Source: Minisyncoccota bacterium (GTDB lineage: Bacteria; Patescibacteriota; Minisyncoccia; Phycocordibacterales; UBA9973). Taken from it: a DNA stretch of 64,000 nucleotides. The position numbers were made by a program, and so were the translations under genes. The stretch covers positions 319,277-383,276 of the forward strand of contig JBAZKU010000001.1 in the NCBI GenBank assembly GCA_041650615.1, in the 5' to 3' direction. The notes under the pieces are model-generated. The model saw nothing but the letters and a program-made list of their open reading frames with translations, was not told where the DNA came from and ran no database searches. This document shows positions 9,510-61,383 of this stretch, one piece after another. How positions within the stretch are numbered: position 1 is the first letter of the stretch; the number at the start of each line of letters is the position of its first letter.

Positions 9510-9559
9510 AAATCCTCCGTATTATTGGTGACAAAAAGAACAACCCTCATTTGCAATAT

Positions 9560-13173: not shown

Positions 13174-15054
13174 ATGAAGGATATTATCAGACTAAAAATT
13201 AAATTCGGATTTTGGATAACATCTGCCATTATTATTGGTATATTTTTTTCTTCTCTTCTATTAAAAGGCGTTTCGTACAAACAAACAGAATCACAAAAAA
13301 GTGCTGCCATAGTGATAGAATCTTTGGCTTCAGAAGAAACAACGCCTCAATATTTTTATTTCACCAAGGATCCAAGTCAAAAACCTAAGGTCGGGGCAGG
13401 AGCATACCTAGTCGGTGACCTAGATACAGGAGAAATTATTTTGACAAAAAATGAAGATAGGCAATTCCCAATTGCCTCGGTTTCCAAGCTTATGACAGCA
13501 ACTCTTGCAACAGAATTAATGAAACCGGATGATATAGCTTCAGTTTCTAAAAAGGCGCTAAGTACTTATGGAGAAAATGGTAATTTAAAATTGGGAGAAA
13601 AAATAAAAATTTCAGATCTTATTTATCCCCTACTCTTAGAATCAAGCAATGATGCGGGAGAAGTAATAGCTGAATATTTCGGCAGAGATATTTTTATAAA
13701 AAAAATGAATCAAATGGCTCTTAAGTTGGAATTGTCTAAAACCACTTTTGAAGACCCAAGCGGACTTTCTATAAAAAATCAATCAACCGTTTTTGACATG
13801 TTTAAATTAGCGGGATACATAAATCAAAAAAACCCGGGGTTACTTAAAATTACGACAGAAAAAAGTTACTCTAATAAAAAACATATTTGGTTTAGCAATA
13901 ATCAATTTCTCCACGAAGATGGTTATTTGGGCGGGAAAAGCGGATACACAGACCCCGCTCTGCAAACAGTTGTTTCCCTTTTTTCCATTCCCTTGGGAGA
14001 ATCCGGGGCACGTAATATAGCCATTACTCTTTTGCAAAGCAAAGACCGTTACAAGGATGTGGAAAGCATTTTAAAATATTTGAATAAAAATATATATTAT
14101 GGAGGAGAAACCGACGCTAATACTGCCTGGGTAAAAGAAAGAACCGATATCCCTTTTTATGACCAAGATTTTGTCGCTCTTTCTTTTGGCGGGGATATGA
14201 TGCTTGACCGCGGAGTAGAAAGTTCCGTAAATAAAAACTTTAATGGAGATTATTCAATTCTTTTTGAAAAACTTGGAATCTTAAAAAAATCGGATATTGC
14301 TTTTGCTAATCTAGAGGGTCCGGCCTCCGACACGGGTAAAGATATGCGTAATCTATATTCGTTTAGAATGAGCCCTTCCGTTATCCCCGCCTTAAAAGGA
14401 GCGGGATTATCTATAGTTTCGGTTTCCAATAATCATGCCGGAGACTGGGGACGAGATGCCTATAGCGATACATTAGCAAATTTAAAAGAAAATGAAATTT
14501 TATACACAGGAGGAGGAATAAATGAAAGTGAAGCCGAACAACCGATTGTTATTGAAAAATATGGAATGAAAATAGGATATTTAGGGTTTTCGGATGTAGG
14601 ACCAAATTGGATGAAAGCAACAGGGAATGAAGCCGGAGTACTTCTTGCAAGCAATCCTCGCTTTGACGAAATAGTGCAAAATGCTTCCAAACAAGTTGAT
14701 TATTTAGTGGTAACGTTTCATTTTGGAGAAGAATATCAAACCGAACATAATGCCAGACAAGAATATCTGGCGCATAAAGCGATAGATGCCGGCGCGAAAA
14801 TTATAATCGGCACGCATCCACACGTAGTGGAAGATACGGAAGTTTATAAAAATGGTTTTATCGCTTATTCTTTGGGCAACCTTATTTTTGACCAGGGCTT
14901 TTCGCAAAATACCATGCAAGGCATGCTTCTGGAAATTAAATTAAACAGAGATGGAAGTATGTCTATAAAGAAAAATACCGTTAAATTAAACAAATTTTTC
15001 CAGCCAGATAAAATAATTTTAGGTAAAGAGGAAAAAGTGGTTTTTGAGAAATAA
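13174..15054 (+). CDS. Fusion: membrane-anchored S11 D-Ala-D-Ala carboxypeptidase (PBP5-like) + CapA/PgsA-family metallophosphatase domain
   Basis: N-terminal TM; SxxK (SVSKLMT), SxN (ESSNDAG), KSG (KSGYTDP) motifs of DD-carboxypeptidase; C-terminal half has CapA motifs (GGDMMLDRGV, FANLEGP, SVSNNHAGDWG, HFGEEYQ, GTHPHVVED, SLGNLIFDQ). Confidence 0.75.
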   Translation: MKDIIRLKIKFGFWITSAIIIGIFFSSLLLKGVSYKQTESQKSAAIVIESLASEETTPQYFYFTKDPSQKPKVGAGAYLVGDLDTGEIILTKNEDRQFPIASVSKLMTATLATELMKPDDIASVSKKALSTYGENGNLKLGEKIKISDLIYPLLLESSNDAGEVIAEYFGRDIFIKKMNQMALKLELSKTTFEDPSGLSIKNQSTVFDMFKLAGYINQKNPGLLKITTEKSYSNKKHIWFSNNQFLHEDGYLGGKSGYTDPALQTVVSLFSIPLGESGARNIAITLLQSKDRYKDVESILKYLNKNIYYGGETDANTAWVKERTDIPFYDQDFVALSFGGDMMLDRGVESSVNKNFNGDYSILFEKLGILKKSDIAFANLEGPASDTGKDMRNLYSFRMSPSVIPALKGAGLSIVSVSNNHAGDWGRDAYSDTLANLKENEILYTGGGINESEAEQPIVIEKYGMKIGYLGFSDVGPNWMKATGNEAGVLLASNPRFDEIVQNASKQVDYLVVTFHFGEEYQTEHNARQEYLAHKAIDAGAKIIIGTHPHVVEDTEVYKNGFIAYSLGNLIFDQGFSQNTMQGMLLEIKLNRDGSMSIKKNTVKLNKFFQPDKIILGKEEKVVFEK

Positions 15055-15060
15055 AAAAGC
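15041..15060. repeat. Left copy of 19-20-bp direct repeat TTTTTGAGAAATAAAAAAGC (right copy at 16121..16139)
   Basis: Identical except one A in the A-run; the two copies bracket a 1.06-kb segment with two minus-strand genes; left copy is the last codons + stop of the CapA-fusion gene. Confidence 0.6.
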
Positions 15061-15102
15061 CACACAACTTTAGTTATGCGACTTTCCATATAAAAAAGAA
15101 AA

Positions 15103-15522
15103 TTAACAATATCTTTCGGATCCAACACAAAGACAAAGAACTAAACAAAATATAAACACCACAACAACATCAAGAGCAACTATCACGGAAAGTACCACAC
15201 ATAACATCTTTATACCAATCATTATAATACCAGTTGCAGGCCATTGTAGGGACATAATTCCTGTAAGAATACTTACCCAACCGATAATTCCGATAATTCC
15301 AGCAATTAAGATTAGCAATTGTTCATAGGAATTATCAAATGAATTTTTTAAAAACCCCTTAATAATTAAAACAATTATTGTTAGTACCCCTGATACAGCT
15401 ATCATTCCAGAAGTATAATTTTGATTTAATTCACCAATAATGCTGATTAAACAAACAACAAGAATAACAATGAATACTGCAAAAAAACGAAAAAGGGATG
15501 TTTCCATGACATATCTCCTCAA
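15103..15522 (-). CDS. Small polytopic membrane protein, unknown function
   Basis: 139 aa, about four hydrophobic helices, no recognisable motif. Confidence 0.4.
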   Translation of the reverse strand: MRRYVMETSLFRFFAVFIVILVVCLISIIGELNQNYTSGMIAVSGVLTIIVLIIKGFLKNSFDNSYEQLLILIAGIIGIIGWVSILTGIMSLQWPATGIIMIGIKMLCVVLSVIVALDVVVVFIFCLVLCLCVGSERYC

Positions 15523-15637
15523 TTAATATTTAATTGTGAAAAACAAATTTTGTTTTAATTTTCTTATATTATATATCCATTTTACAAAAAAGTCAACAAA
15601 TTACACATATACGCCATGGCGTAAATGGGGATACGAG

Positions 15638-16018
15638 TTAAGGTTTTTTTACATAAGATTTGGCTAATTTAAATGTCTTGAAGTTATCCCCTATTTTTAT
15701 TTCTTTTAGATAATCCAAAAAATCTTTTGGCAACGGAGAAGGTCCAACCCAGACACTTTTTTGAATCATTATATAGCCGAACTTTATTAGGTGTCTTCGT
15801 AGCCAATCACGTTCTTTCTTTTGCTGTTCCGGGATATCATACATTAAAATTAAGTTCTTAGAAGAATTTTTCTTAAAAGGCGAAGAAAAAGTAATATGAT
15901 AAAAATTTCTTTTTCTGTTTTCTTTTTTTGTTCTATTTTTCCTCCCTTCTAAGAAGATTGGAATACCTAAAGAATTTACTCTTACTCCTTTATAAAATAA
16001 TTTTCTTTTCGAACTCAT
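15638..16018 (-). CDS. Cas2/VapD-superfamily small endoribonuclease-like protein with a basic N-terminal extension (orphan; no Cas1 or CRISPR array in window)
   Basis: LILMYDIPEQQKKERDWLRRHLIKFGYIMIQKSVWVG...DNFKTFKL fits the Cas2/VapD pattern (hhhhYDhx7Rx2Lx3Lx3Gx2hQxSVax; cf. Cas2 LVLVTYDV...RLRKVAKVCQNYGQRVQNSVFEC and VapD LAFDL...LRQELELLGFEWTQGSVYV). ~45-aa Lys/Arg-rich N-terminal extension. Confidence 0.45.
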   Translation of the reverse strand: MSSKRKLFYKGVRVNSLGIPIFLEGRKNRTKKENRKRNFYHITFSSPFKKNSSKNLILMYDIPEQQKKERDWLRRHLIKFGYIMIQKSVWVGPSPLPKDFLDYLKEIKIGDNFKTFKLAKSYVKKP

Positions 16019-16036
16019 ATATAAATGATATCACTA

Positions 16037-16068
16037 TATACACATATACGCTATAGCGTATATGTGTA
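16037..16068. promoter_or_regulatory. Perfect 32-bp palindrome ATACACATATACGC-TATA-GCGTATATGTGTAT in the promoter region of the Cas2/VapD-like gene (putative operator)
   Basis: 14-bp arms around TATA, 19-50 nt upstream of the start codon; a degenerate copy (ACACATATACGCcatgGCGTAaATGgGg) lies just downstream of the gene at 15602-15628. Confidence 0.5.
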
Positions 16069-16120
16069 TTATCACACTAAAGTGATTTATTTACTAAAAT
16101 AGGCAAAGAAAAGAAAATTA

Positions 16121-16139
16121 TTTTTGAGAAATAAAAAGC
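16121..16139. repeat. Right copy of the 19-bp direct repeat TTTTTGAGAAATAAAAAGC
   Basis: See 15041..15060; 35 nt beyond the smc stop codon. Confidence 0.6.
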
Positions 16140-16173
16140 TCCCTGACAAGGGTGGGGGTTGTATTTTAAAAAA

Positions 16174-18411
16174 TTATTTGGCAATTGCGGCGGCTTCGTC
16201 AAGTTTTACTGAGAGAAGTTTTGAAGCACCGTCGTTGCCGATAGTGACACCATATAGGATACCGGCGCGGGACATTGTTTCCCTGTTATGGGTAACAACG
16301 ATGAGCTGTGAATGACGAGAAAGTTTTTCTAACATATCTCCGTATTTACGAGAATTAGCTTCATCAAGTGCTGCATCTGTCTCATCTAGAACCAAAAAGG
16401 GCGGAGGGTTTACTTGGGACATGGCAAAAAGAAGAGCAATAGAGGTAAGAGACCTTTCTCCTCCCGAGAGCGCTTTGAGTTCCTTTACTTTTTTATGCGG
16501 AAGCGAAACATTGATTTCAATACCCTGTTCAGGGACAATTTCCTCCTCATCTTCCATATTTTCTTCCAAATCTCCTTCTTCTCCTTCTTTTTTCTGTTTA
16601 TTTTCAGTTATAACAGAAAGATACCCTGTTCCCCCGCCGAACATTAATGAAAAGAATTTTCCAAATTCCACGTTTATTTTTTCAACGCCTTCTTTAAACT
16701 CCATATCTATTTTCTCTTTCAAGTCGGCTATAAGTTTGCGGAGTGATTCTATGCTTGTTACCAAATCTTCCATTTCTTTCGCTAGAAAATTATCCCTTTC
16801 TGAAACTTCTTCAAATTCTTTAATCAGCTCAGACCCCCCGCCTAGGCCGACATCTTCCAGTTTCATTTTGATGCGTTCAATTTTTTTTCTTAGTTCTTCT
16901 TGCGTATTTCTATCTATTGACCCGTTTATTTCGAAATTTTTATAAGATAAGATTTCACTGCCAATAAGCACTGAACCTTCTTTTATTTCATTTTCATACG
17001 CTTCCACCTCTTTTGACAAATTTTCTTCCTTTACGGCTATAAGCCCCAGAGAAGAGGATAATTCTTGTTGTCTGACTCTAAAATTAAATTTTTCCTTCTC
17101 CCTGGAGTGTAAAATTTCGTTTTCCTGATTTATTTCCTTTTTCAATATTTCTATTTTTTCAATAATTTTCTTTTCTTCGTTTTCAATATTCTGCATTTCA
17201 GCCAAAATCTTTTGTTTTTCTATCTTTAAATTCTCTAATTCTTCGTTTGTAGAAAGTTTTTCTGTTTTATAAGAATAATGATTAAATTTATTTAAAATAT
17301 CTTTTATTCTAAAAAGAATAATTTTAATTTCCGCTGCATTTTCTTCTATTATTGCTTCTTCTATCTCGTTATTAATCTCGTTAAAAATTTCTTTTATTTC
17401 TTCTGGATTTTGGATTGCAATTTCTGGTGCTTTCTTACTTCTGCGCTCTTCCATCTCTATCATTCCTTCTATTCTTCCTAATTTACGCTCTATCTCACTT
17501 CTAATTGCGCGAATTTCACCGATTTTTTTCTCAAATATTTTTAATTCTTTTTCTTTTTCACTTTCTTCCTTTTTATTTATTTCTTCGACGCTGGAAATCT
17601 TCTCTTTAATATTTTCCAATTCCGCAGAAATTTTATTTTTTTCCAAAAATAAGCTTGATTGTTCCTTTTCCAAATAAACACTTTCCTTCTTCAAATATTC
17701 CCTATAAAGAGATAATAAGGTCGCTTGCATTTCTTTTGCTTTTTCAAATTTATCTACCTGTTTCTTAAGGAAATTCAAATGGGGGGCATTTTCCCGGCGT
17801 AAAAGCGAGACTTCCTTCATATTATTGGTTGTTTTTTCCAATTTGCGTCCGGCTTCTTTAATTTTGTATTGATAAATTTTAAGGCCGAGAGCATCTTCCA
17901 CCATTTCCCTTCTGTCTTTTGGCGACGCATTCAAAATCCTATCCGCTTCGCCTTGTGAAATAATATGATGCCCAGAAGAACCGATATTAACCGACGATAA
18001 AAGATTGTTGATATCTTTTAATCTTACTTCCGAACCGTTTAAAATATATTTATTCAATCCGTCAGAATAAACTTCGCGGGAAATTGAGATGATATCGTAA
18101 TTCAGATTAATATCTTCGCCTCCCTCATTAGAGAGCTTGAAAACCTTATCAGAATTATCAAAATATATGGTAACGGTCGCGCGCGAGCTTTTTGGCAGAT
18201 TTTTGGATCCTTTAAAAATTAAATCGGAACCTAAGCTTCCCCGCATTGATTTCATTGATTGTTCGCCCAAAACAAAACGAAGCGCTTCTACCACATTTGA
18301 CTTACCAGACCCGTTGGGGCCCACAATAGAAACAATGGGATTTTGGAATTCCAAAATTGTTTTTTTATAAAAAGATTTAAAGCCGTTTATTTCAAGATTT
18401 TTAAGTCGCAT
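16174..18411 (-). CDS. smc: Compact SMC-family chromosome segregation ATPase (745 aa)
   Basis: N-terminus MRLKNLEINGFKSFYKKTILEFQNPIVSIVGPNGSGKSNVVEALRFVLGEQS (Walker A) and C-terminus LSGGERSLTSIALLFAMSQ...LVLDETDAALDEAN (signature + Walker B) with Glu/Lys-rich coiled coil between; no obvious canonical hinge domain. Confidence 0.85.
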   Translation of the reverse strand: MRLKNLEINGFKSFYKKTILEFQNPIVSIVGPNGSGKSNVVEALRFVLGEQSMKSMRGSLGSDLIFKGSKNLPKSSRATVTIYFDNSDKVFKLSNEGGEDINLNYDIISISREVYSDGLNKYILNGSEVRLKDINNLLSSVNIGSSGHHIISQGEADRILNASPKDRREMVEDALGLKIYQYKIKEAGRKLEKTTNNMKEVSLLRRENAPHLNFLKKQVDKFEKAKEMQATLLSLYREYLKKESVYLEKEQSSLFLEKNKISAELENIKEKISSVEEINKKEESEKEKELKIFEKKIGEIRAIRSEIERKLGRIEGMIEMEERRSKKAPEIAIQNPEEIKEIFNEINNEIEEAIIEENAAEIKIILFRIKDILNKFNHYSYKTEKLSTNEELENLKIEKQKILAEMQNIENEEKKIIEKIEILKKEINQENEILHSREKEKFNFRVRQQELSSSLGLIAVKEENLSKEVEAYENEIKEGSVLIGSEILSYKNFEINGSIDRNTQEELRKKIERIKMKLEDVGLGGGSELIKEFEEVSERDNFLAKEMEDLVTSIESLRKLIADLKEKIDMEFKEGVEKINVEFGKFFSLMFGGGTGYLSVITENKQKKEGEEGDLEENMEDEEEIVPEQGIEINVSLPHKKVKELKALSGGERSLTSIALLFAMSQVNPPPFLVLDETDAALDEANSRKYGDMLEKLSRHSQLIVVTHNRETMSRAGILYGVTIGNDGASKLLSVKLDEAAAIAK

Positions 18412-20030: not shown

Positions 20031-20056
20031 AAATTAATGAACGATGGCGGTAGAGT

Positions 20057-20284
20057 TTATTTAGCTTCCGCCTTTTTTGCTTTTTCTTTTTTCTGTTTCT
20101 TTTCCATCTTTTTAACCAAATCCAACACTTTCATTCCGCGATAAAATCCGCAAGACGAGCAAACTGTGTGACGTTTCTTGAGATTTTTGCAATTTTCGCA
20201 CTTAACAAAATTCGTACTCATCAATGCATGATGGGAACGCCTATTTTTCGTATGCGACTTTGTATGTCTCATTCGTACTACCAT
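20057..20284 (-). CDS. rpmF: 50S ribosomal protein L32 (probable start at internal Met, MRHTKSHTK..., 20272)
   Basis: RHTKSHTKNRRSHHAL...CENCKNLKKRHTVCSSCGFYRG matches bL32 (KRRTSKSRRDKRRAH...CPNCG...HRVCPSCGYY). Confidence 0.85.
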   Translation of the reverse strand: MVVRMRHTKSHTKNRRSHHALMSTNFVKCENCKNLKKRHTVCSSCGFYRGMKVLDLVKKMEKKQKKEKAKKAEAK

Positions 20285-20365
20285 AATGTATCTTATACTA
20301 GCACATTAAAGCTAAAAAGCAAAACAGTTTTTGCGAAATAATAAAATATGATATTATGAAGATAT

Positions 20366-47178: not shown

Positions 47179-47190
47179 AATTAATTTAGT

Positions 47191-47664
47191 TTAAGGAGTT
47201 GAAGGAGTTGAAGGAGTTGAAGGAGTTGAAGGAGTTGAAGGAGTTGAAGGAGTTGAAGGAGTTGAAGGATCGGCCGGTATTGGAAACTCTGAAAGATCTG
47301 CTGAAGAACTTGTAGTCGTAGACGGCGTAAGCACATCAGAACCAATCGGGGCAAAAGGATTTAATCTTCCTTTATCTACTGGAAGAGTAAGTAAAATACT
47401 GGAATCATGTAGATTGATAAAAGATTCATCAGAAAAAATAACATCGTTTAACCCTATATTGTTAACGCTCAATAGCACAGAAAGAAAATTCTGAGCAATT
47501 AAAGAATTTTGGTCTAAAGTTTCTGTACTTGTCGATGTTATATCTCCGGAGGAGGAAATCAAATTCTGTTCTTCTGGTGACTTTTTAATGAAGAAAATAT
47601 AAATCAGAACCAAGATGACCGCAATCGTTGCAAAAATTATTGTGTTTTTTATTTTTGGGGTCAT
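47191..47664 (-). CDS. Membrane-anchored pilus-cluster protein (PilP-like position) ending in (STP)8 repeat
   Basis: N-terminal TM; C-terminus PSTPSTPSTPSTPSTPSTPSTP directly before stop. Confidence 0.5.
   Translation of the reverse strand: MTPKIKNTIIFATIAVILVLIYIFFIKKSPEEQNLISSSGDITSTSTETLDQNSLIAQNFLSVLLSVNNIGLNDVIFSDESFINLHDSSILLTLPVDKGRLNPFAPIGSDVLTPSTTTSSSADLSEFPIPADPSTPSTPSTPSTPSTPSTPSTPSTP
47195..47266. repeat. Perfect tandem repeat, 8 x 9 bp (GGAGTTGAA), encoding (Ser-Thr-Pro)n on the minus strand
   Basis: Eight identical units at the extreme 3' end of CDS 47191..47664. Confidence 0.9.
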
Positions 47665-50173: not shown

Positions 50174-50833
50174 ATGCATTTCTTAAACACTATATTAGAC
50201 ATAGTTTTCCCTGTGAATTGCGTTTCGTGTGAGAAAAGGGGTTCGGATTTATGCTTAAAATGCCTTTTAGGCTCTCCAGCCGCAGAACGAGAAAGCGCTA
50301 ATTGGATATTTCCATTATTTGACTATCGTCATTTGCCCATTAAGAAATCAATTTGGCTTTTAAAATACAAGGGTAAAAAAAGACTGGCTGGTATTTTTGC
50401 GGAGATTTTATATGAAAGAATTATAGAAGAACTTTCAGAATTAAGCCTAATGGAAAATTTTCGCCAGCCGGTTTTAATTCCCATTCCCCTCTCTAAAAAA
50501 AGATACAGGGAACGCGGATATAATCAGGCAGAATTAATTTGCAGAGAATTAATAAAAATAAATAATCTGCGCCATGGCGCAGATTTAAAATTAGAGAAAA
50601 ATATTTTAATAAAAATAAAAGAAACGGAACATCAAGCAAATATTAAAGACCGGAAGGATAGATTAAAAAATCTCGCTAATTCTTTTTCGGTAAAAAATTC
50701 CGAGCGGATAAAGGGCAAAAATATAATTTTAATAGACGATGTCACCACTACCGGAGCGACATTGGTTGAAGCCAAAAAAATATTAAAACAATCCGGCGCT
50801 AAAAAAGTAATCGCTTTCACCGTGGCGCATTAA
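50174..50833 (+). CDS. comFC: ComF-family protein (ComFC-like phosphoribosyltransferase domain with N-terminal Cys4 Zn finger)
   Basis: CVSCEKRGSDLCLKCL zinc ribbon; PRTase motif IILIDDVTTTGATL. Confidence 0.8.
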   Translation: MHFLNTILDIVFPVNCVSCEKRGSDLCLKCLLGSPAAERESANWIFPLFDYRHLPIKKSIWLLKYKGKKRLAGIFAEILYERIIEELSELSLMENFRQPVLIPIPLSKKRYRERGYNQAELICRELIKINNLRHGADLKLEKNILIKIKETEHQANIKDRKDRLKNLANSFSVKNSERIKGKNIILIDDVTTTGATLVEAKKILKQSGAKKVIAFTVAH

Positions 50834-58692: not shown

Positions 58693-61383
58693 TTCATTCA
58701 TCTTCGCTTTCGTCTTGTTCCCCACTAGGCCATCAGCTACCAAACCGTTATCTTTCTGCCATTTCTTCACCACCGCAACAGTTTTAGGACCTAATTTGCC
58801 ATCAACCACTAAACCAAGATTCAAGGCTTGATTCAGGAATCTTTGCAATTCTTTCACTGCTTCACCTTTGCTGCCATTCTTTAAGGTAGAGGTACCGAAG
58901 TTGTAAGCCGAAGGTCCTGAACTTGTTGAAGGAGTAGAAGAAGTTGCACTAGCAGTTGTATTAGTCGAGATTGAAGCTGAACTTGCTGTAACCGTATTGC
59001 CTATGCAAGATTGACCGGTAGTAATGCTAAAACCGGTATTTCTATTGTCACAACCTGGAATAGTAGTAGTGGTAGAAGTGGTAACGTTCCCGGCACAAGC
59101 TTGACCGGTGGTGGTGCTGAAACCACTTGTCCTATTATCACAACCTGGAACGGTAGTTGTATTAGTTAAAGTAGTAGTGGTGATATTAGTAATTGGATTG
59201 GTAAAGACTGTAGTGACAGTAGAACTTCCTCCTCCTCCACCACCTCCTCCTCCAGCAGGAGGAACAGTGGTAGCGACAGTATTGGAAACGGTCACTGAAA
59301 GAGCGGTGGAAGTGGTACTGTTCCCAGCTGCATCTCTAGCTACAGCTGTTAAAGAATGAGCACCATTGTTTGAAGCAGTGGTATTCCAAGTGATTGAATA
59401 TGGAGAAGTAAAATCTTCCTCTCCCAGATTAGTTCCATCCAGTTTGAATTGCACTCCGATTACTCCCACATTATCAGAAGCAGTAGCAGAAATAGTTACA
59501 TTACCAGAGACCGAAGCACTGGCTGTTGGAGCGGTGATGGAAATGGTGGGGGAGGTGGTGTCGGAGACAGGAGGTGGAGCGACCACAAATTCAGACTCAT
59601 AAGCACCTATATCAGGAGAGGTTCCATTGTAAAGGAAACTTACTCCTTCTCCATCAGTCCATTGGATTGATTGATTAAGAGTTATCGTATTGCTGTCATA
59701 GTTCACATTGGTAATTCTAAGAGAAGAATCATTGCCCACTTTTATTAAATCTCCTTCAGCAATTCCAAAACCATCTGTAAAATAACTTGCATCGTTTACC
59801 GCGATAGTTGTTCCATTACCGCTACCAATAGTTGTGGCTAAGAAGGCACCAGCATCAACTGCTGGACTTCCCGACTGAAGATGATAATCGGAGGTAAATA
59901 AAGGATTTTGTTCCAGGCTGTAAGTATCCTTGCCACTGGCTGTAATATATTGGGCTAAAGATAAAGAAGAGCCTAGATATTTAATTGCAACCGGTCGGGT
60001 ATTGTAAAACAATTCATTGTCCGAGGTATAATCGGTGCATTCTACTCCAAAATCTTTTGATGAACTTGTATTGGAGAAAATATTGTTTTTAAGATGAAAT
60101 CCGGTTGAGGGACTATAATAATTCGGCTGGTTATACATCGTGGTCAAACATATACTCATATCCGGCCATGAACTGCTTGCACTACCATTATAATTACTAA
60201 GTGTATTGTGAGCCACAGCTACGTCATGAGAATTTCCATAAATACTCATTCCTTTTGAATTATATAAATTTTCAAAATTATTATTGACAACAATGTTGTT
60301 TCTTAATATCACCCTTCTGCTTATACCAACTAATATACCTGTATCATTACCTGCGGTGTAATTATTTTTTACCACAACATTTATTGAATTATCAACCCAG
60401 ATTCCCGTCTCCCCATGAAAAATTTTAGCGTTGTTTTCACTACGATTCCCTTCCACTACAGCTTTGTCTGTTATATCTTCCAACTGTATCCCTGTCGCAC
60501 CGTTATCATGTGTATAGTTATCCTTAATTAAGATACCTGAAACACCACCCGTCCGTATGCCTTGGCATGCATTATCATATATTTCATTCCCTATAACTGT
60601 TATCCTCTTCGCCCAATAAGTTTGGTCTTCGTTGCCAGTGGGAGTACCACCTGAAAAGGTACTATAATCATACGATACCTCAATACCATGGGTGAAGTCG
60701 GTGCCAGAATATGTCCCTTCCACTTGTCTATTCGAATAGATAGTATTGTTCATGATTGTAGTATCATAAACACGGGAATTGATGAATATTCCATGACTTG
60801 TATTATTGTGTGATAAAGAATTTTTTATAGTGACATAGGATACAGGGTTTCCGTTATTTCCATCAGCACTAATGCCCAAGATATTACCATACGCTTCTAT
60901 CCCATCAATAATAATGTTTGATGAACCGTTGTAGATATATATACCGTATAGTTGATTTGTAACTTTAATACCTTTGAACTGCAAATATTGCTTGTTATTC
61001 ACTTGTATGCCATTCCATGGGTCAGCCCTACCATTACCGCTGATTATTACTGATTCATTATTATAATTCTGATATGTTATATAACTTGAAGAAGTTCCGG
61101 AACCTGCAGGGTAAATCTTTCCGGAATATGTTCCTCCCCTAATATTTATAATATCTCCCGGTGAAAAGGCAGGCATTACGCTAAAACTTTTATAAGCAGA
61201 ACCGTCTGAACCTGTACATGTTCTTGAAGCAATAGAATAGGTATTGGTACAATTATCTGAAAGCTGATTATCAACGTAATAGGTTGCTGCACTTGCTCCC
61301 CTGCCAAACAAAAAACTTCCTCCCAGAAAAATAGTGATAAAAAGTAGAGTTTTCAACAAATTTATCTTTTGTTTTTTAAGCAT
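58681..61383 (-). CDS. Secreted right-handed beta-helix (pectate-lyase-like fold) protein with Ig-like region, poly-Gly linker, Cys-motif repeats and C-terminal peptidoglycan-binding domain
   Basis: Signal peptide; repeated NNxI/YxN beta-helix rungs; PPAGGGGGGGGGSS; duplicated PGCDNR(T/N)(S/T)GFSxTTGQxC(A/I)GN; C-terminal PG_binding_1-like GSKGEAVKELQRFLNQALNLGLVVDGKLGPKT. Confidence 0.65.
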   Translation of the reverse strand: MLKKQKINLLKTLLFITIFLGGSFLFGRGASAATYYVDNQLSDNCTNTYSIASRTCTGSDGSAYKSFSVMPAFSPGDIINIRGGTYSGKIYPAGSGTSSSYITYQNYNNESVIISGNGRADPWNGIQVNNKQYLQFKGIKVTNQLYGIYIYNGSSNIIIDGIEAYGNILGISADGNNGNPVSYVTIKNSLSHNNTSHGIFINSRVYDTTIMNNTIYSNRQVEGTYSGTDFTHGIEVSYDYSTFSGGTPTGNEDQTYWAKRITVIGNEIYDNACQGIRTGGVSGILIKDNYTHDNGATGIQLEDITDKAVVEGNRSENNAKIFHGETGIWVDNSINVVVKNNYTAGNDTGILVGISRRVILRNNIVVNNNFENLYNSKGMSIYGNSHDVAVAHNTLSNYNGSASSSWPDMSICLTTMYNQPNYYSPSTGFHLKNNIFSNTSSSKDFGVECTDYTSDNELFYNTRPVAIKYLGSSLSLAQYITASGKDTYSLEQNPLFTSDYHLQSGSPAVDAGAFLATTIGSGNGTTIAVNDASYFTDGFGIAEGDLIKVGNDSSLRITNVNYDSNTITLNQSIQWTDGEGVSFLYNGTSPDIGAYESEFVVAPPPVSDTTSPTISITAPTASASVSGNVTISATASDNVGVIGVQFKLDGTNLGEEDFTSPYSITWNTTASNNGAHSLTAVARDAAGNSTTSTALSVTVSNTVATTVPPAGGGGGGGGGSSTVTTVFTNPITNITTTTLTNTTTVPGCDNRTSGFSTTTGQACAGNVTTSTTTTIPGCDNRNTGFSITTGQSCIGNTVTASSASISTNTTASATSSTPSTSSGPSAYNFGTSTLKNGSKGEAVKELQRFLNQALNLGLVVDGKLGPKTVAVVKKWQKDNGLVADGLVGNKTKAKMNESVR

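Follow-up and report, generated by a model that had tools for sequence, protein, structure and literature searches.

Which described system comes closest to a small Cas2-like gene set between two palindromes? PaaX is a repressor that binds palindromic operators; its ~305-aa chain (PDB 8a39) is covered by PF07848, PF20803 and PF08223, with PF20803 describing a Cas2-like domain placed behind a winged helix. CRISPR Cas2 (type II-A structures such as 5zyf, 8pk1 and 5xvn) has a ferredoxin-like fold, and a Cas2-like fold is also found in VapD/VapXD (HP0315, PDB 3ui3). In RAYT/REP systems, and likewise for IS200/IS605 TnpA, a small gene lies between similar palindromes, and palindromes of the same core stand alone at gene 3′ ends; RAYT genes are passed on vertically and, for the most part, are present once or in few copies. 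With HrcA/CIRCE and LexA, finally, a perfect inverted repeat covers the regulator's own promoter and a few copies occur elsewhere. The locus described here has a 126-aa protein with the PF20803 domain and a fold of the Cas2 type. Its small gene, largely vertically inherited and mostly present once or in few copies, lies between similar palindromes, one of them a perfect inverted repeat across the gene's own putative promoter; in metagenomes, palindromes of the same core also stand alone at gene 3′ ends. It departs from PaaX in size, in having no Pfam match to the N-terminal winged helix or to PaaX_C, in the lack of paa genes near the unit and in carrying palindromes on both sides of the gene; from CRISPR Cas2 in an extra conserved N-terminal region and in its housekeeping-gene surroundings; and from VapD, also small and stand-alone, in being highly conserved, syntenic, flanked by cognate palindromes and free of a VapX-like partner. 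Its fold is unrelated to those of HrcA and LexA, its other palindrome copies are not in promoter positions, and as a discrete unit the gene and its two sites recur across contexts.

The window, that is, the whole stretch of 64,000 nt analysed, comes from a tiny uncultivated bacterium (Paceibacteria). On its plus strand, positions 13174–15054 encode a fusion of PBP5 (Peptidase_S11, PF00768, 4.3e-36) and CapA (PGA_cap, PF09587, 2e-65), with orthologues of 68–81% identity in five of the compared loci (L006–L010). Convergent with this gene is smc (16174–18411, minus strand, 745 aa; assigned by Pfam and orthologues), which is the upstream neighbour of the Cas2-like unit and runs in the same direction. 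Between the two, on the minus strand, lie the gene for the 126-aa Cas2-fold protein (15638–16018) and a 134-aa ORF (15103–15507) with 4–5 hydrophobic segments by hydropathy count, in keeping with the 4-TM membrane protein claimed earlier. The latter has a sigma-70-type promoter, TTGACT-17-TATAAT (15596 to 15568, minus strand, 11/12 consensus matches), and is followed by a terminator-like hairpin (15054–15087, minus strand) whose T run overlaps the left copy of a direct repeat. No homologue of the 4-TM protein was found in the 42 genome loci, nor among 5.8e9 proteins except itself, and it matched nothing in Pfam, NCBIfam or PADLOC. The ORF at this place differs in nearly every locus and is often a small membrane protein; the 4-TM gene is a strict ORFan, a variable "cargo" downstream of a conserved unit.

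The Cas2/VapD-type assignment of the 126-aa protein held up, with Pfam, an AF2 model (pLDDT 77.5) and Foldseek agreeing on a Cas2/VapD/PaaX-type fold. PaaX_M (PF20803) is its best family (8.8e-15; score 55 bits, cutoff 24), ahead of CRISPR_Cas2 (2.6e-6), and the top 28 Foldseek matches in the PDB are all Cas2, VapD or PaaX, including PaaX 8a39 and, at rank 24, VapD 3ui3. Matches to the PADLOC Cas2 models are weak, and full-length PaaX (TIGR02277) scores 21.8 bits against a cutoff of 264.55. The protein does pass the cutoff of TIGR01573 (32.6 bits, over residues 56–92 only), which is probably why public records label family members "CRISPR-associated endonuclease Cas2". It starts with an N-terminal β-hairpin (residues 7–14), continues with a linker rich in K/R, and has its Cas2 domain, of ferredoxin-like fold, at residues ~54–118. 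A YDIP...Q.SVW motif, with the Asp that ends strand 1, aligns to Cas2, whose Asp is kept as D61; E69, D71, an ERDW motif and Tyr residues are invariant in the family alignment as well. The invariance of ERDW and of D61, which sits at the Cas2 catalytic position, would also be compatible with an enzyme.

The N-terminal stretch was initially annotated as a basic extension. Basic it is, residues 1–55 holding 16 K/R against 2 D/E, but it is the remnant of a winged-helix domain rather than an extension. Long relatives (~165 aa) have a winged-helix-like N domain followed by the Cas2-like, PaaX-middle domain, the domain order of PaaX itself, and might be called "mini-PaaX" proteins; most of 1802 cluster representatives measure 155–200 aa. 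Compared with these, the short form is missing helix 1 as well as the recognition helix and the wing. Judged by these alignments, the 126-aa protein belongs, in shortened form, to a large family of ~165-aa "mini-PaaX" proteins of Patescibacteria. With recognition helix and wing lost, any DNA binding must rest on the K/R-rich linker, the β-hairpin or the Cas2-like domain. Nor is the gene an orphan, as had been supposed: the family is very conserved, with 1653 hits, of which the best 120 listed are still 66–86% identical, with 1–2 copies per genome among the retrieved loci, and the gene changes at about the slow pace of the housekeeping genes next to it. In agreement with the initial annotation, the gene does not belong to a CRISPR locus: no Cas1 Pfam match lies within ±10 kb and no array-like repeats were found in the 64 kb.

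What recurs between genomes, by locus comparison, is a unit of ~480 bp: palindrome, promoter, 126-aa gene, palindrome. It was found in 42 genome loci, beside housekeeping genes, in at least 10 contexts, one of which is the rpsG–fusA gap inside the str operon. Where copies sit in unrelated contexts, their homology spans the outer edge of the upstream (U) palindrome to the outer edge of the downstream (D) palindrome, then ends. With a single gene in the unit and downstream ORFs that bear no relation to each other from locus to locus, the absence of a VapX-like partner is confirmed. Five genomes carry two copies; in one of them the sister copies (L025 and L030) are 91% identical and have unrelated flanks, the sole near-identical pair with different flanks among 69 units. 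Otherwise, the position of the unit is stable across species, inheritance looks largely vertical, and nothing was found in viral contigs. The possibility of an integron cassette was rejected: the genes have their own promoters and no integrase is among the neighbours.

Both palindromes that had been proposed are present, and no shuffle matched either of them. The U palindrome is perfect (16+16, 16038–16069, ATACACATATACGC-TATA-GCGTATATGTGTAT) and would form a DNA hairpin of −13.3 kcal/mol (z = −6.9). Its centre lies 35 nt before the ATG (16018–16016), across the −35/spacer region of the Cas2-like gene's promoter, whose core as read from the sequence (16019–16033, minus strand) comprises a TG at 16033–16032, a −10 element TATCAT at 16030–16025 and a 6-nt spacer to the ATG. 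The degenerate D palindrome (15602–15633) is centred 21–22 nt after the stop and reads, in gene orientation, CCCCATTTACGC-CATG-GCGTATATGTGT, with the core TACGCCATGGCGTA at 15610–15623; its hairpin is weak (−4.6 kcal/mol). A promoter stands on the 3′ side of the D site, that of the 4-TM gene, whose −35 hexamer begins 5 nt beyond the palindrome. The placement expected of an operator recurs in 27 of 30 loci, where the U centre is 34–36 nt ahead of an in-frame start and the palindrome abuts the −10; the same loci have TAnnnT (mostly TATAAT) 6–7 nt before the start. With the transcription start site taken from this promoter layout, the mRNA of the Cas2-like gene would be leaderless. A D site follows the stop in 33 of 42 loci, and D sites have conserved asymmetries. 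The variable outer arms are common to U and D of one locus (e.g. L012, L016, L040), which points to recognition by the cognate protein. At non-canonical arm positions on the sense strand, G-U is not favoured over A-C (4 vs 9 at U sites, 11 vs 15 at D sites), which favours a DNA-level over an RNA constraint.

Together with the fold, this suggests an autoregulated palindrome-binding protein as the most likely reading, to which we assign a probability of about one half. The protein would form dimers through the Cas2-like domain, in the manner of Cas2 and PaaX, and bind the 30–32-bp palindrome (core TACGC-YATR-GCGTA) on either side of its own gene. Bound at the U site, it would cover the −35/spacer and repress its own transcription; at the D site, between stop and next promoter, it could serve as an insulator of the unit or modulate the gene next to it. 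The sequence architecture with its conservation, the fold, the limits of the unit and an empty site (see below) are observed; the DNA binding, the dimerisation, the autorepression and the leaderless transcription we infer.

Sites away from the gene complicate this picture. Across the 42 genome loci as well as the window, exact-core palindromes occur solely beside the Cas2-like gene, with one 2-mismatch variant at 50561–50582 as the lone near-match elsewhere; ~0.5 Mb of flanks contained none other than the gene-linked ones. This tight linkage of palindrome and gene speaks for the autoregulatory reading. In metagenomes, by contrast, about two thirds of exact-core palindromes have no family gene alongside. 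Such solo palindromes show promoter geometry in 3 of 85 cases; they stand at gene 3′ ends or in frame within RNase H and ComF-like genes, and a simple operator regulon fails to explain them. D and solo sites follow stop codons directly, the stop lying 16–19 nt from the centre. Across 81 solo sites the arms covary, with 255 double-sided changes against 129 in shuffles (0/500 as high), and symmetry extends ~14 nt outward from the centre even though the sequence of the arms is free to vary. Such a pattern would be expected more of a hairpin or cruciform than of a half-site that a highly conserved protein recognises. Solo palindrome and gene were seen together within the same genome on a few contigs only, and there the arms differ.

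A reading that accommodates these sites is a REP/RAYT-like or IS-like one, in which the Cas2-fold protein, as a nuclease or strand-transferase, would act on the palindromes in the form of DNA hairpins or cruciforms. It would have carried the whole unit, and solo palindromes as well, to new places, and most copies would by now be old and fixed. We consider it possible but unlikely. The discrete unit with edges exactly at the palindromes, its many contexts, the two-copy genomes and the sisters with unrelated flanks would all be expected of it, as would an empty site and target duplications at some loci (see below), the solo sites at gene ends and in frame, the covarying arms and the invariant D61, E69, D71 and Tyr residues. 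Against this stand the rarity of near-identical units with different flanks, the stable position across species, a gene that diverges like its neighbours, the low palindrome density in the flanks, the silence of viral contigs, and duplications of 16–56 nt that enclose variable cargo and are set apart from the palindromes. Neither an HUH motif nor a match to a transposase or integrase family was found in the protein; a Y1 HUH transposase as in IS200/IS605 or RAYT was rejected, given no PF01797 match and no conserved His-x-His in the family alignment. In contrast to REP elements, moreover, the conserved part of the palindrome is its centre and not a GTAG foot, and the upstream palindrome is locked to a promoter. 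The wider proposal, that the Cas2-fold family is the cognate partner of undescribed Patescibacteria palindromic elements, which it would recognise as DNA hairpins or cruciforms and would have spread along with its own palindrome-bounded gene, as a non-HUH REP/RAYT analogue, we regard as improbable. Constraint may instead act on RNA, the palindromes being 3′-end hairpins of mRNAs (terminators or stabilisers) that the protein binds or cleaves, those of its own mRNA included. Cas2 and VapD homologues are reported RNases (titles of PDB entries 3exc and 3ui3), the arms covary, D and solo sites come right after stops, and some solo sites are flanked by an A run and a T run, resembling bidirectional terminators. 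Most sites, however, have no T run, the D site of the window folds poorly, G-U pairs are not enriched, no Rfam match was found, and the U site lies upstream of its own −10 at a fixed 34–36 nt from the start, a spacing no terminator needs; we judge an RNA-level role to be quite improbable.

How, then, did the unit come to lie between CapA and smc? The initial annotation described a 1.06-kb cassette bounded by a 19-bp direct repeat, TTTTTGAGAAATAAAAA(A)GC. The repeat is there (15041–15059 and 16121–16139, with an exact core of 17 nt common to both), and translation bears out that its left copy forms the last codons of the CapA-fusion gene. It is more than a bare 19-mer: aligned without gaps, it extends over 38 nt (31/38, 82%; 15020–15057 against 16100–16137, both read on the plus strand), which correspond to the last 11 codons plus stop of the CapA fusion. 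The left copy encodes ...LGKEEKVVFEK and a stop; the right one, with 7 differences that are mostly G-to-A, is a decayed in-frame copy (KIGKEKKIIFEK and a stop). The terminator-like hairpin immediately 3′ of it (16140–16158, plus strand), beside the smc stop, looks like the original CapA terminator. The best flanking repeat scores 17, against a mean of 9.8 and a maximum of 15 in shuffles, although the 19-mer alone (≤3 mismatches) is weakly significant (at least 2 hits in 6/100 shuffles). An empty site, for which the initial reading had proposed to look, exists: in one related genome (L011) the smc and CapA stops are 2 nt apart, with a single CapA tail, which supports reading the segment as an insertion relative to at least that genome. 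The unit would have arrived together with an unrelated ORFan membrane gene, in an insertion of ~1.08 kb that now separates the CapA fusion from the convergent smc and that duplicated the final 38 nt of the CapA gene; the right-hand copy would have decayed later.

As a recurring entity, by contrast, the repeat-bounded two-gene cassette is contradicted. The 4-TM gene has no homologues, and four orthologous loci (L006, L007, L008 and L010) have the Cas2-like gene at smc/CapA without flanking repeats, which comes near to the finding that the initial reading had itself named as a refutation; the gap from smc to the Cas2-like gene is ~65 nt longer in the window than in these four. Flanking duplications were also seen around the unit in L009, where a longer, 56-nt duplicate of the same CapA tail brackets it, and at other sites in L036 and L038. 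At the smc/CapA loci compared, no recombinase was found with the repeats, and the cargo differs between loci. Could it be that the repeats mark no mobile cassette and arose as a by-product when a chronically variable gap underwent a local duplication or rearrangement that had nothing to do with the Cas2-like gene? The gap does vary overall (L138 has a pilin-like gene there and no unit; in L011 it is 2 nt), the repeats do not abut the palindromes, four loci do without them, and an AT-rich 17-nt core is only moderately unlikely by chance. Yet the duplicate copies the CapA tail in frame, with a terminator-like hairpin behind it, the L009 duplicate is independent, and similar repeats flank the unit elsewhere; this explanation, too, seems to us quite improbable. 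Most improbable by far is a toxin module on an inserted cassette with an autoregulatory operator, whether the protein were an RNase toxin like VapD or paired with the 4-TM protein as an abortive-infection effector. The Cas2/VapD-like fold, the weak PADLOC matches, the frequent small membrane proteins among the variable downstream genes and an RHH plus RelE-like pair in one rpsG-fusA gap (L106) might be cited in its favour; PaaX_M, however, is a better match than Cas2 or VapD, and the toxin-like RNase once envisaged found no support, given a single-gene unit with no conserved partner or antitoxin, very high conservation, largely vertical inheritance and a pace of evolution as slow as that of housekeeping neighbours.

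For Patescibacteria, these findings mean that the proteins described here, annotated as Cas2 in public records, form a large, highly conserved family without CRISPR context, whose relabelling affects CRISPR censuses of the Candidate Phyla Radiation. With a 126-aa protein, two 30-bp sites and a predicted leaderless promoter within 480 bp, the unit is an unusually compact and sharply defined protein/site pair and thus directly testable in vitro. If the protein does read its palindrome without a winged helix, this would be a new mode of nucleic-acid recognition for the Cas2-like fold. If it acts on hairpins instead, this would tie Cas2 relatives to palindromic repeats outside CRISPR and bear on how Cas2 was recruited to adaptation; as a REP/RAYT analogue, it would be a free-living Cas2 relative working on palindromic repeats without Cas1. 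In either case, the unit marks variable spots, such as the smc/CapA and rpsG/fusA gaps, in otherwise rigid, reduced genomes.

What kind of protein is encoded between the CapA fusion gene and smc? The 126-aa ORF at 15638–16018(-) belongs to the superfamily of Cas2, VapD and the PaaX middle domain, by sequence and by fold. It matches PaaX_M (8.8e-15) and CRISPR_Cas2 (2.6e-6), and passes the TIGR01573 cas2 cutoff with residues 56–92 only. Its AlphaFold model (pLDDT 77.5) consists of an N-terminal β-hairpin, a disordered K/R-rich linker and a β-α-β-β-α-β domain; the best 28 PDB fold matches were all Cas2, VapD or PaaX (E-values ~0.01, probabilities 0.84–1.0). The domain and fold matches thus bear out the Cas2/VapD-like identity proposed in the initial annotation. 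We find 1653 database relatives, the best 120 of which are still 66–86% identical along their whole length, including the N-terminus, and a full HMM scan returned 1802 cluster representatives, mostly of 155–200 aa. In these longer proteins, the Cas2-like domain is preceded by an N domain resembling a winged helix. Aligned with them, the short form lacks helix 1 as well as the recognition helix plus wing, and its N-terminus retains only a YKGxxVNxxGxP motif and the basic linker. What had been described as a basic N-terminal extension is therefore basic, in its linker, but is a degenerate winged helix rather than an extension.

The defining tests of context or architecture failed for CRISPR Cas2, PaaX proper, VapD toxin–antitoxin pairs and Y1 transposases. 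There is no CRISPR array in the window and no Cas1 within ±10 kb, as had been claimed, which argues against a CRISPR remnant; a phage origin was discarded because viral contigs held no relatives. The window DNA is AT-rich and derives from a Paceibacteria/Nomurabacteria-type bacterium of the Candidate Phyla Radiation. In the titles and abstracts searched, no paper combined Cas2-like and PaaX, none on Candidate Phyla Radiation palindromic repeats described the present palindromes, and none was found on the family, the palindrome–gene–palindrome unit or its solo palindromes.

The gene is framed by a perfect 32-bp palindrome upstream (U site, 16038–16069) and a degenerate copy downstream (D site, 15602–15633); both are real, and neither ever arises in shuffles. 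Between copies in unrelated contexts, homology begins ~15 nt outside the U palindrome centre and stops ~10–20 nt outside the D palindrome centre, limits that are seen in the related loci L025 and L030 (sister copies within one genome, 91% identical over 479 bp) and in five other pairs. A core-bearing palindrome lies upstream of the gene in 29 of 42 related genome loci and just past its stop codon in 33 of 42, with no exact-core palindrome away from the gene in these 42 loci and the window. Sites hardly differ in their core, TACGC-YATR-GCGTA, but do so in their outer arms (CCCCC, ACACA, TACATAT, GCCATAT and others), which are nonetheless common to the U and D sites of one locus; the differences between U and D sites are themselves conserved across species. 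Recent transposition was dismissed, since near-identical units in different flanks are confined to L025/L030. In the window, L006 and L007 the D site looks hybrid, with a CCCC/CCCTC-type left arm and an ATGTGT-type right arm; the U sites have ACACAT-type sequence in both arms in the window and CCCCC-type arms in L006 and L007. Reciprocal recombination at the palindrome centre does not account for such D sites, since it would have made reciprocal hybrids of the U sites, which they are not.

The unit occurs in many genomic contexts. In the window and L005–L010, the gene follows smc and is followed by a variable ORF and the convergent CapA fusion gene (the L005 contig stops short of the CapA side). 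About 13 loci have it between rpsL-rpsG and a variable ORF ahead of fusA, four have it after FtsW-FolD, and at least seven more contexts exist among the 42 genome loci, which include five genomes with two copies. Gene position mostly follows phylogeny, with exceptions; L011 carries an smc-clade copy at another site. The ORF directly 3′ of the gene is unlike in nearly every locus. In the window it is a 134-aa ORF (15103–15507(-)) that looks like a real gene, with a near-consensus promoter (TTGACT-17-TATAAT, 15596→15568) and a terminator-like hairpin; its 4–5 hydrophobic segments agree with the four-TM membrane protein initially described. A search of 5.8 billion proteins returned only the protein itself, and the 42 genome loci contain no homologue of it. 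A conserved two-gene operon with this protein was rejected because it is an ORFan and downstream ORFs are unrelated between loci. In the rpsG-fusA gap of L106 (1090–1700), the Cas2-like gene is replaced by an RHH antitoxin and a RelE-like toxin, with a half-degenerate palindrome after the pair; the gap also retains a conserved promoter with a G-run spacer, TTGAC-N17-TACACT, that is present in L022, L023, L027, L030, L036 and L159.

How did the unit come to lie between smc and the CapA fusion gene? The direct repeats initially reported are present as 19-mers at 15041–15059 and 16121–16139 that have an exact 17-nt core in common; the ungapped match reaches 38 nt at 82% (15020–15057 versus 16100–16137), and the best repeat bracketing the segment scores 17, against a mean of 9.8 and a maximum of 15 in shuffles. 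As stated in the initial annotation, the left copy makes up the end of the Peptidase_S11 and PGA_cap fusion gene. The right copy repeats this CapA tail in frame with conservative changes (IGKEKKIIFEK* as compared to LGKEEKVVFEK*). Its seven differences, mostly G-to-A, all fall within a G-rich 21-nt part, and the copy is followed by a plus-strand terminator-like hairpin just ahead of the smc stop. Because of its frame, its conservative changes and this hairpin, the right copy appears to be the former 3′ end of CapA, stranded by an insertion. Reading the repeat as an att core plus arms is not needed, as the differences fit AT-biased decay of a non-coding duplicate. An empty site exists in L011, where the smc and CapA stop codons lie 2 nt apart (9546–9553) and the gap is empty, making the ~1.08-kb segment of the window an insertion relative to the L011 arrangement.

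The repeat-bounded cassette is not what is conserved: L006, L007, L008 and L010 carry the gene at the smc/CapA site without such repeats. In L009, the CapA tail and its terminator have been duplicated independently (56 nt, 96% identical), and the duplication brackets the unit and a cargo ORF unlike that of the window; weaker flanking repeats occur at the str site in L036 and L038. Overall, the flanking repeats range from 16 to 56 nt and do not abut the palindromes. The gap also varies where it lacks the unit, as in L138 (5176–5769), where it contains a type IV pilin-like gene (KGFTLIELLVVVAIIGLL...). We thus read the repeats as traces that insertions have left in a variable gap, not as the ends of a conserved cassette. 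In L138 and L011, a Cas2-like unit lies ahead of the string of genes (rpmF-)nusB-rnc-smc. Exact insertion junctions could not be derived from the thrS-rpmF-nusB site by comparing L011 with the window, as the genomes have diverged too far (~72%) and extra DNA flanks the unit. By eye, a 75-aa ORF between thrS and nusB (20031–20365(-); MVVRMRHTKSHTKNRRSHHAL...) resembles ribosomal protein L32. The sequence of its promoter region is conserved between the window and L011, and in the latter the Cas2-like unit has been inserted directly ahead of the gene.

Several neighbouring features deserve mention. The D-Ala-D-Ala carboxypeptidase (Peptidase_S11) joined to a CapA/PGA_cap domain is a 626-aa protein (13174–15054(+)), a fusion kept across the clade (L006–L009). 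The smc gene (16174–18411(-)) encodes only 745 aa, with relatives of 695–768 aa; typical bacterial SMC proteins are much longer, at roughly 1,150–1,200 aa. At 47188–47269, the 9-nt unit AGTTGAAGG is repeated in ~9 tandem copies with 98% matches, and weaker relatives of it lie near 58906–58960.

The spacing between U site and gene is tightly constrained. In 27/30 loci the U palindrome centre lies 34–36 nt ahead of an in-frame start codon, and a TAnnnT hexamer, mostly TATAAT and often preceded by TG, lies 6–7 nt ahead of the inferred start; in the window, these elements are TG (16033–16032), TATCAT (16030–16025) and ATG (16018–16016). With start sites predicted in this way, the layout is that of a putative leaderless promoter with the palindrome over its –35/spacer region. 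A promoter is also found 5–40 nt past the D site.

Palindromes of the same core also occur alone. Metagenomes scanned for the exact 20-nt core yielded at least 119 stretches; among the 119 listed, the family gene was beside the palindrome in 36, further off in 6 and absent in 77. Some solo sites occupy short gaps, their centre 16–19 nt from a stop codon; others lie inside ORFs, in frame in RNase H (L057; peptide THLRHGVNV) and in a ComF-like gene (L053). The window has a 22-bp perfect palindrome at 50561–50582 (AATCTGCGCCATGGCGCAGATT), a variant of the core that is in frame in a ComF-like (Pribosyltran) ORF (50174–50833(+)), at a position equivalent to the canonical palindrome of L053. Two readings of solo palindromes were rejected: that they are operators of leaderless genes (promoter geometry in 3/85 versus 20/1660 in the control), and that they mark places from which a unit has been lost, as the empty site of L011 has no palindrome. 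At six of ~80 solo-palindrome loci, the palindrome neighbours a ~570-aa Cys-rich protein without Pfam match (L070 at 4395 and 6369, L103 at 7035, L136 at 3488, also L091, L139 and L140). It lies between tandem Cys-rich paralogues in L070, L103, L136 and L139, two palindromes bracketing one paralogue in L070, while in L091 and L140 the neighbour is a convergent, unrelated gene. Same-core pairs 56–112 nt apart occur in L052, L065, L067, L075, L096 and L125, with differing arms in the pairs for which these were listed; L125 has two palindromes in tandem upstream of a family gene.

What might the protein do at these sites? The arms of solo palindromes covary, with 79% of cells paired (67.5% in shuffles), 255 double-sided changes versus 129 (0/500 shuffles as high) and pairing maintained to ~14 nt from the centre. 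Such hairpin-like behaviour would suit a role as an RNA hairpin, yet sense-strand G-U mismatches are not favoured over A-C, so that the constraint does not look RNA-specific, and Rfam gave only chance-level matches and no known RNA family; we regard this role as improbable. The main rival, an unlikely but better candidate, would have the protein act on hairpin DNA in a REP/RAYT-like relationship. In its favour are a discrete unit found in multiple contexts, an empty site and solo palindromes; against it, the protein lacks a transposase motif, copy number is low and recent copies are absent except for L025/L030. A toxin role, as the kinship with VapD might suggest, appears very unlikely, the tests for VapD toxin–antitoxin pairs having failed.

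The best-supported reading, to which we assign a probability of roughly 0.5, is that of a palindrome-binding autorepressor. It draws on the winged-helix ancestry, the locked promoter geometry, the arms common to U and D sites and the tight linkage of gene and site; counted against it are a recognition helix that has been lost, arms that covary as in a hairpin, and solo sites in non-promoter positions. As an autorepressor, the Cas2-fold protein would act as a dimer that binds the palindrome; binding at the U site would repress the protein's own leaderless promoter, and the D site would likewise be occupied.
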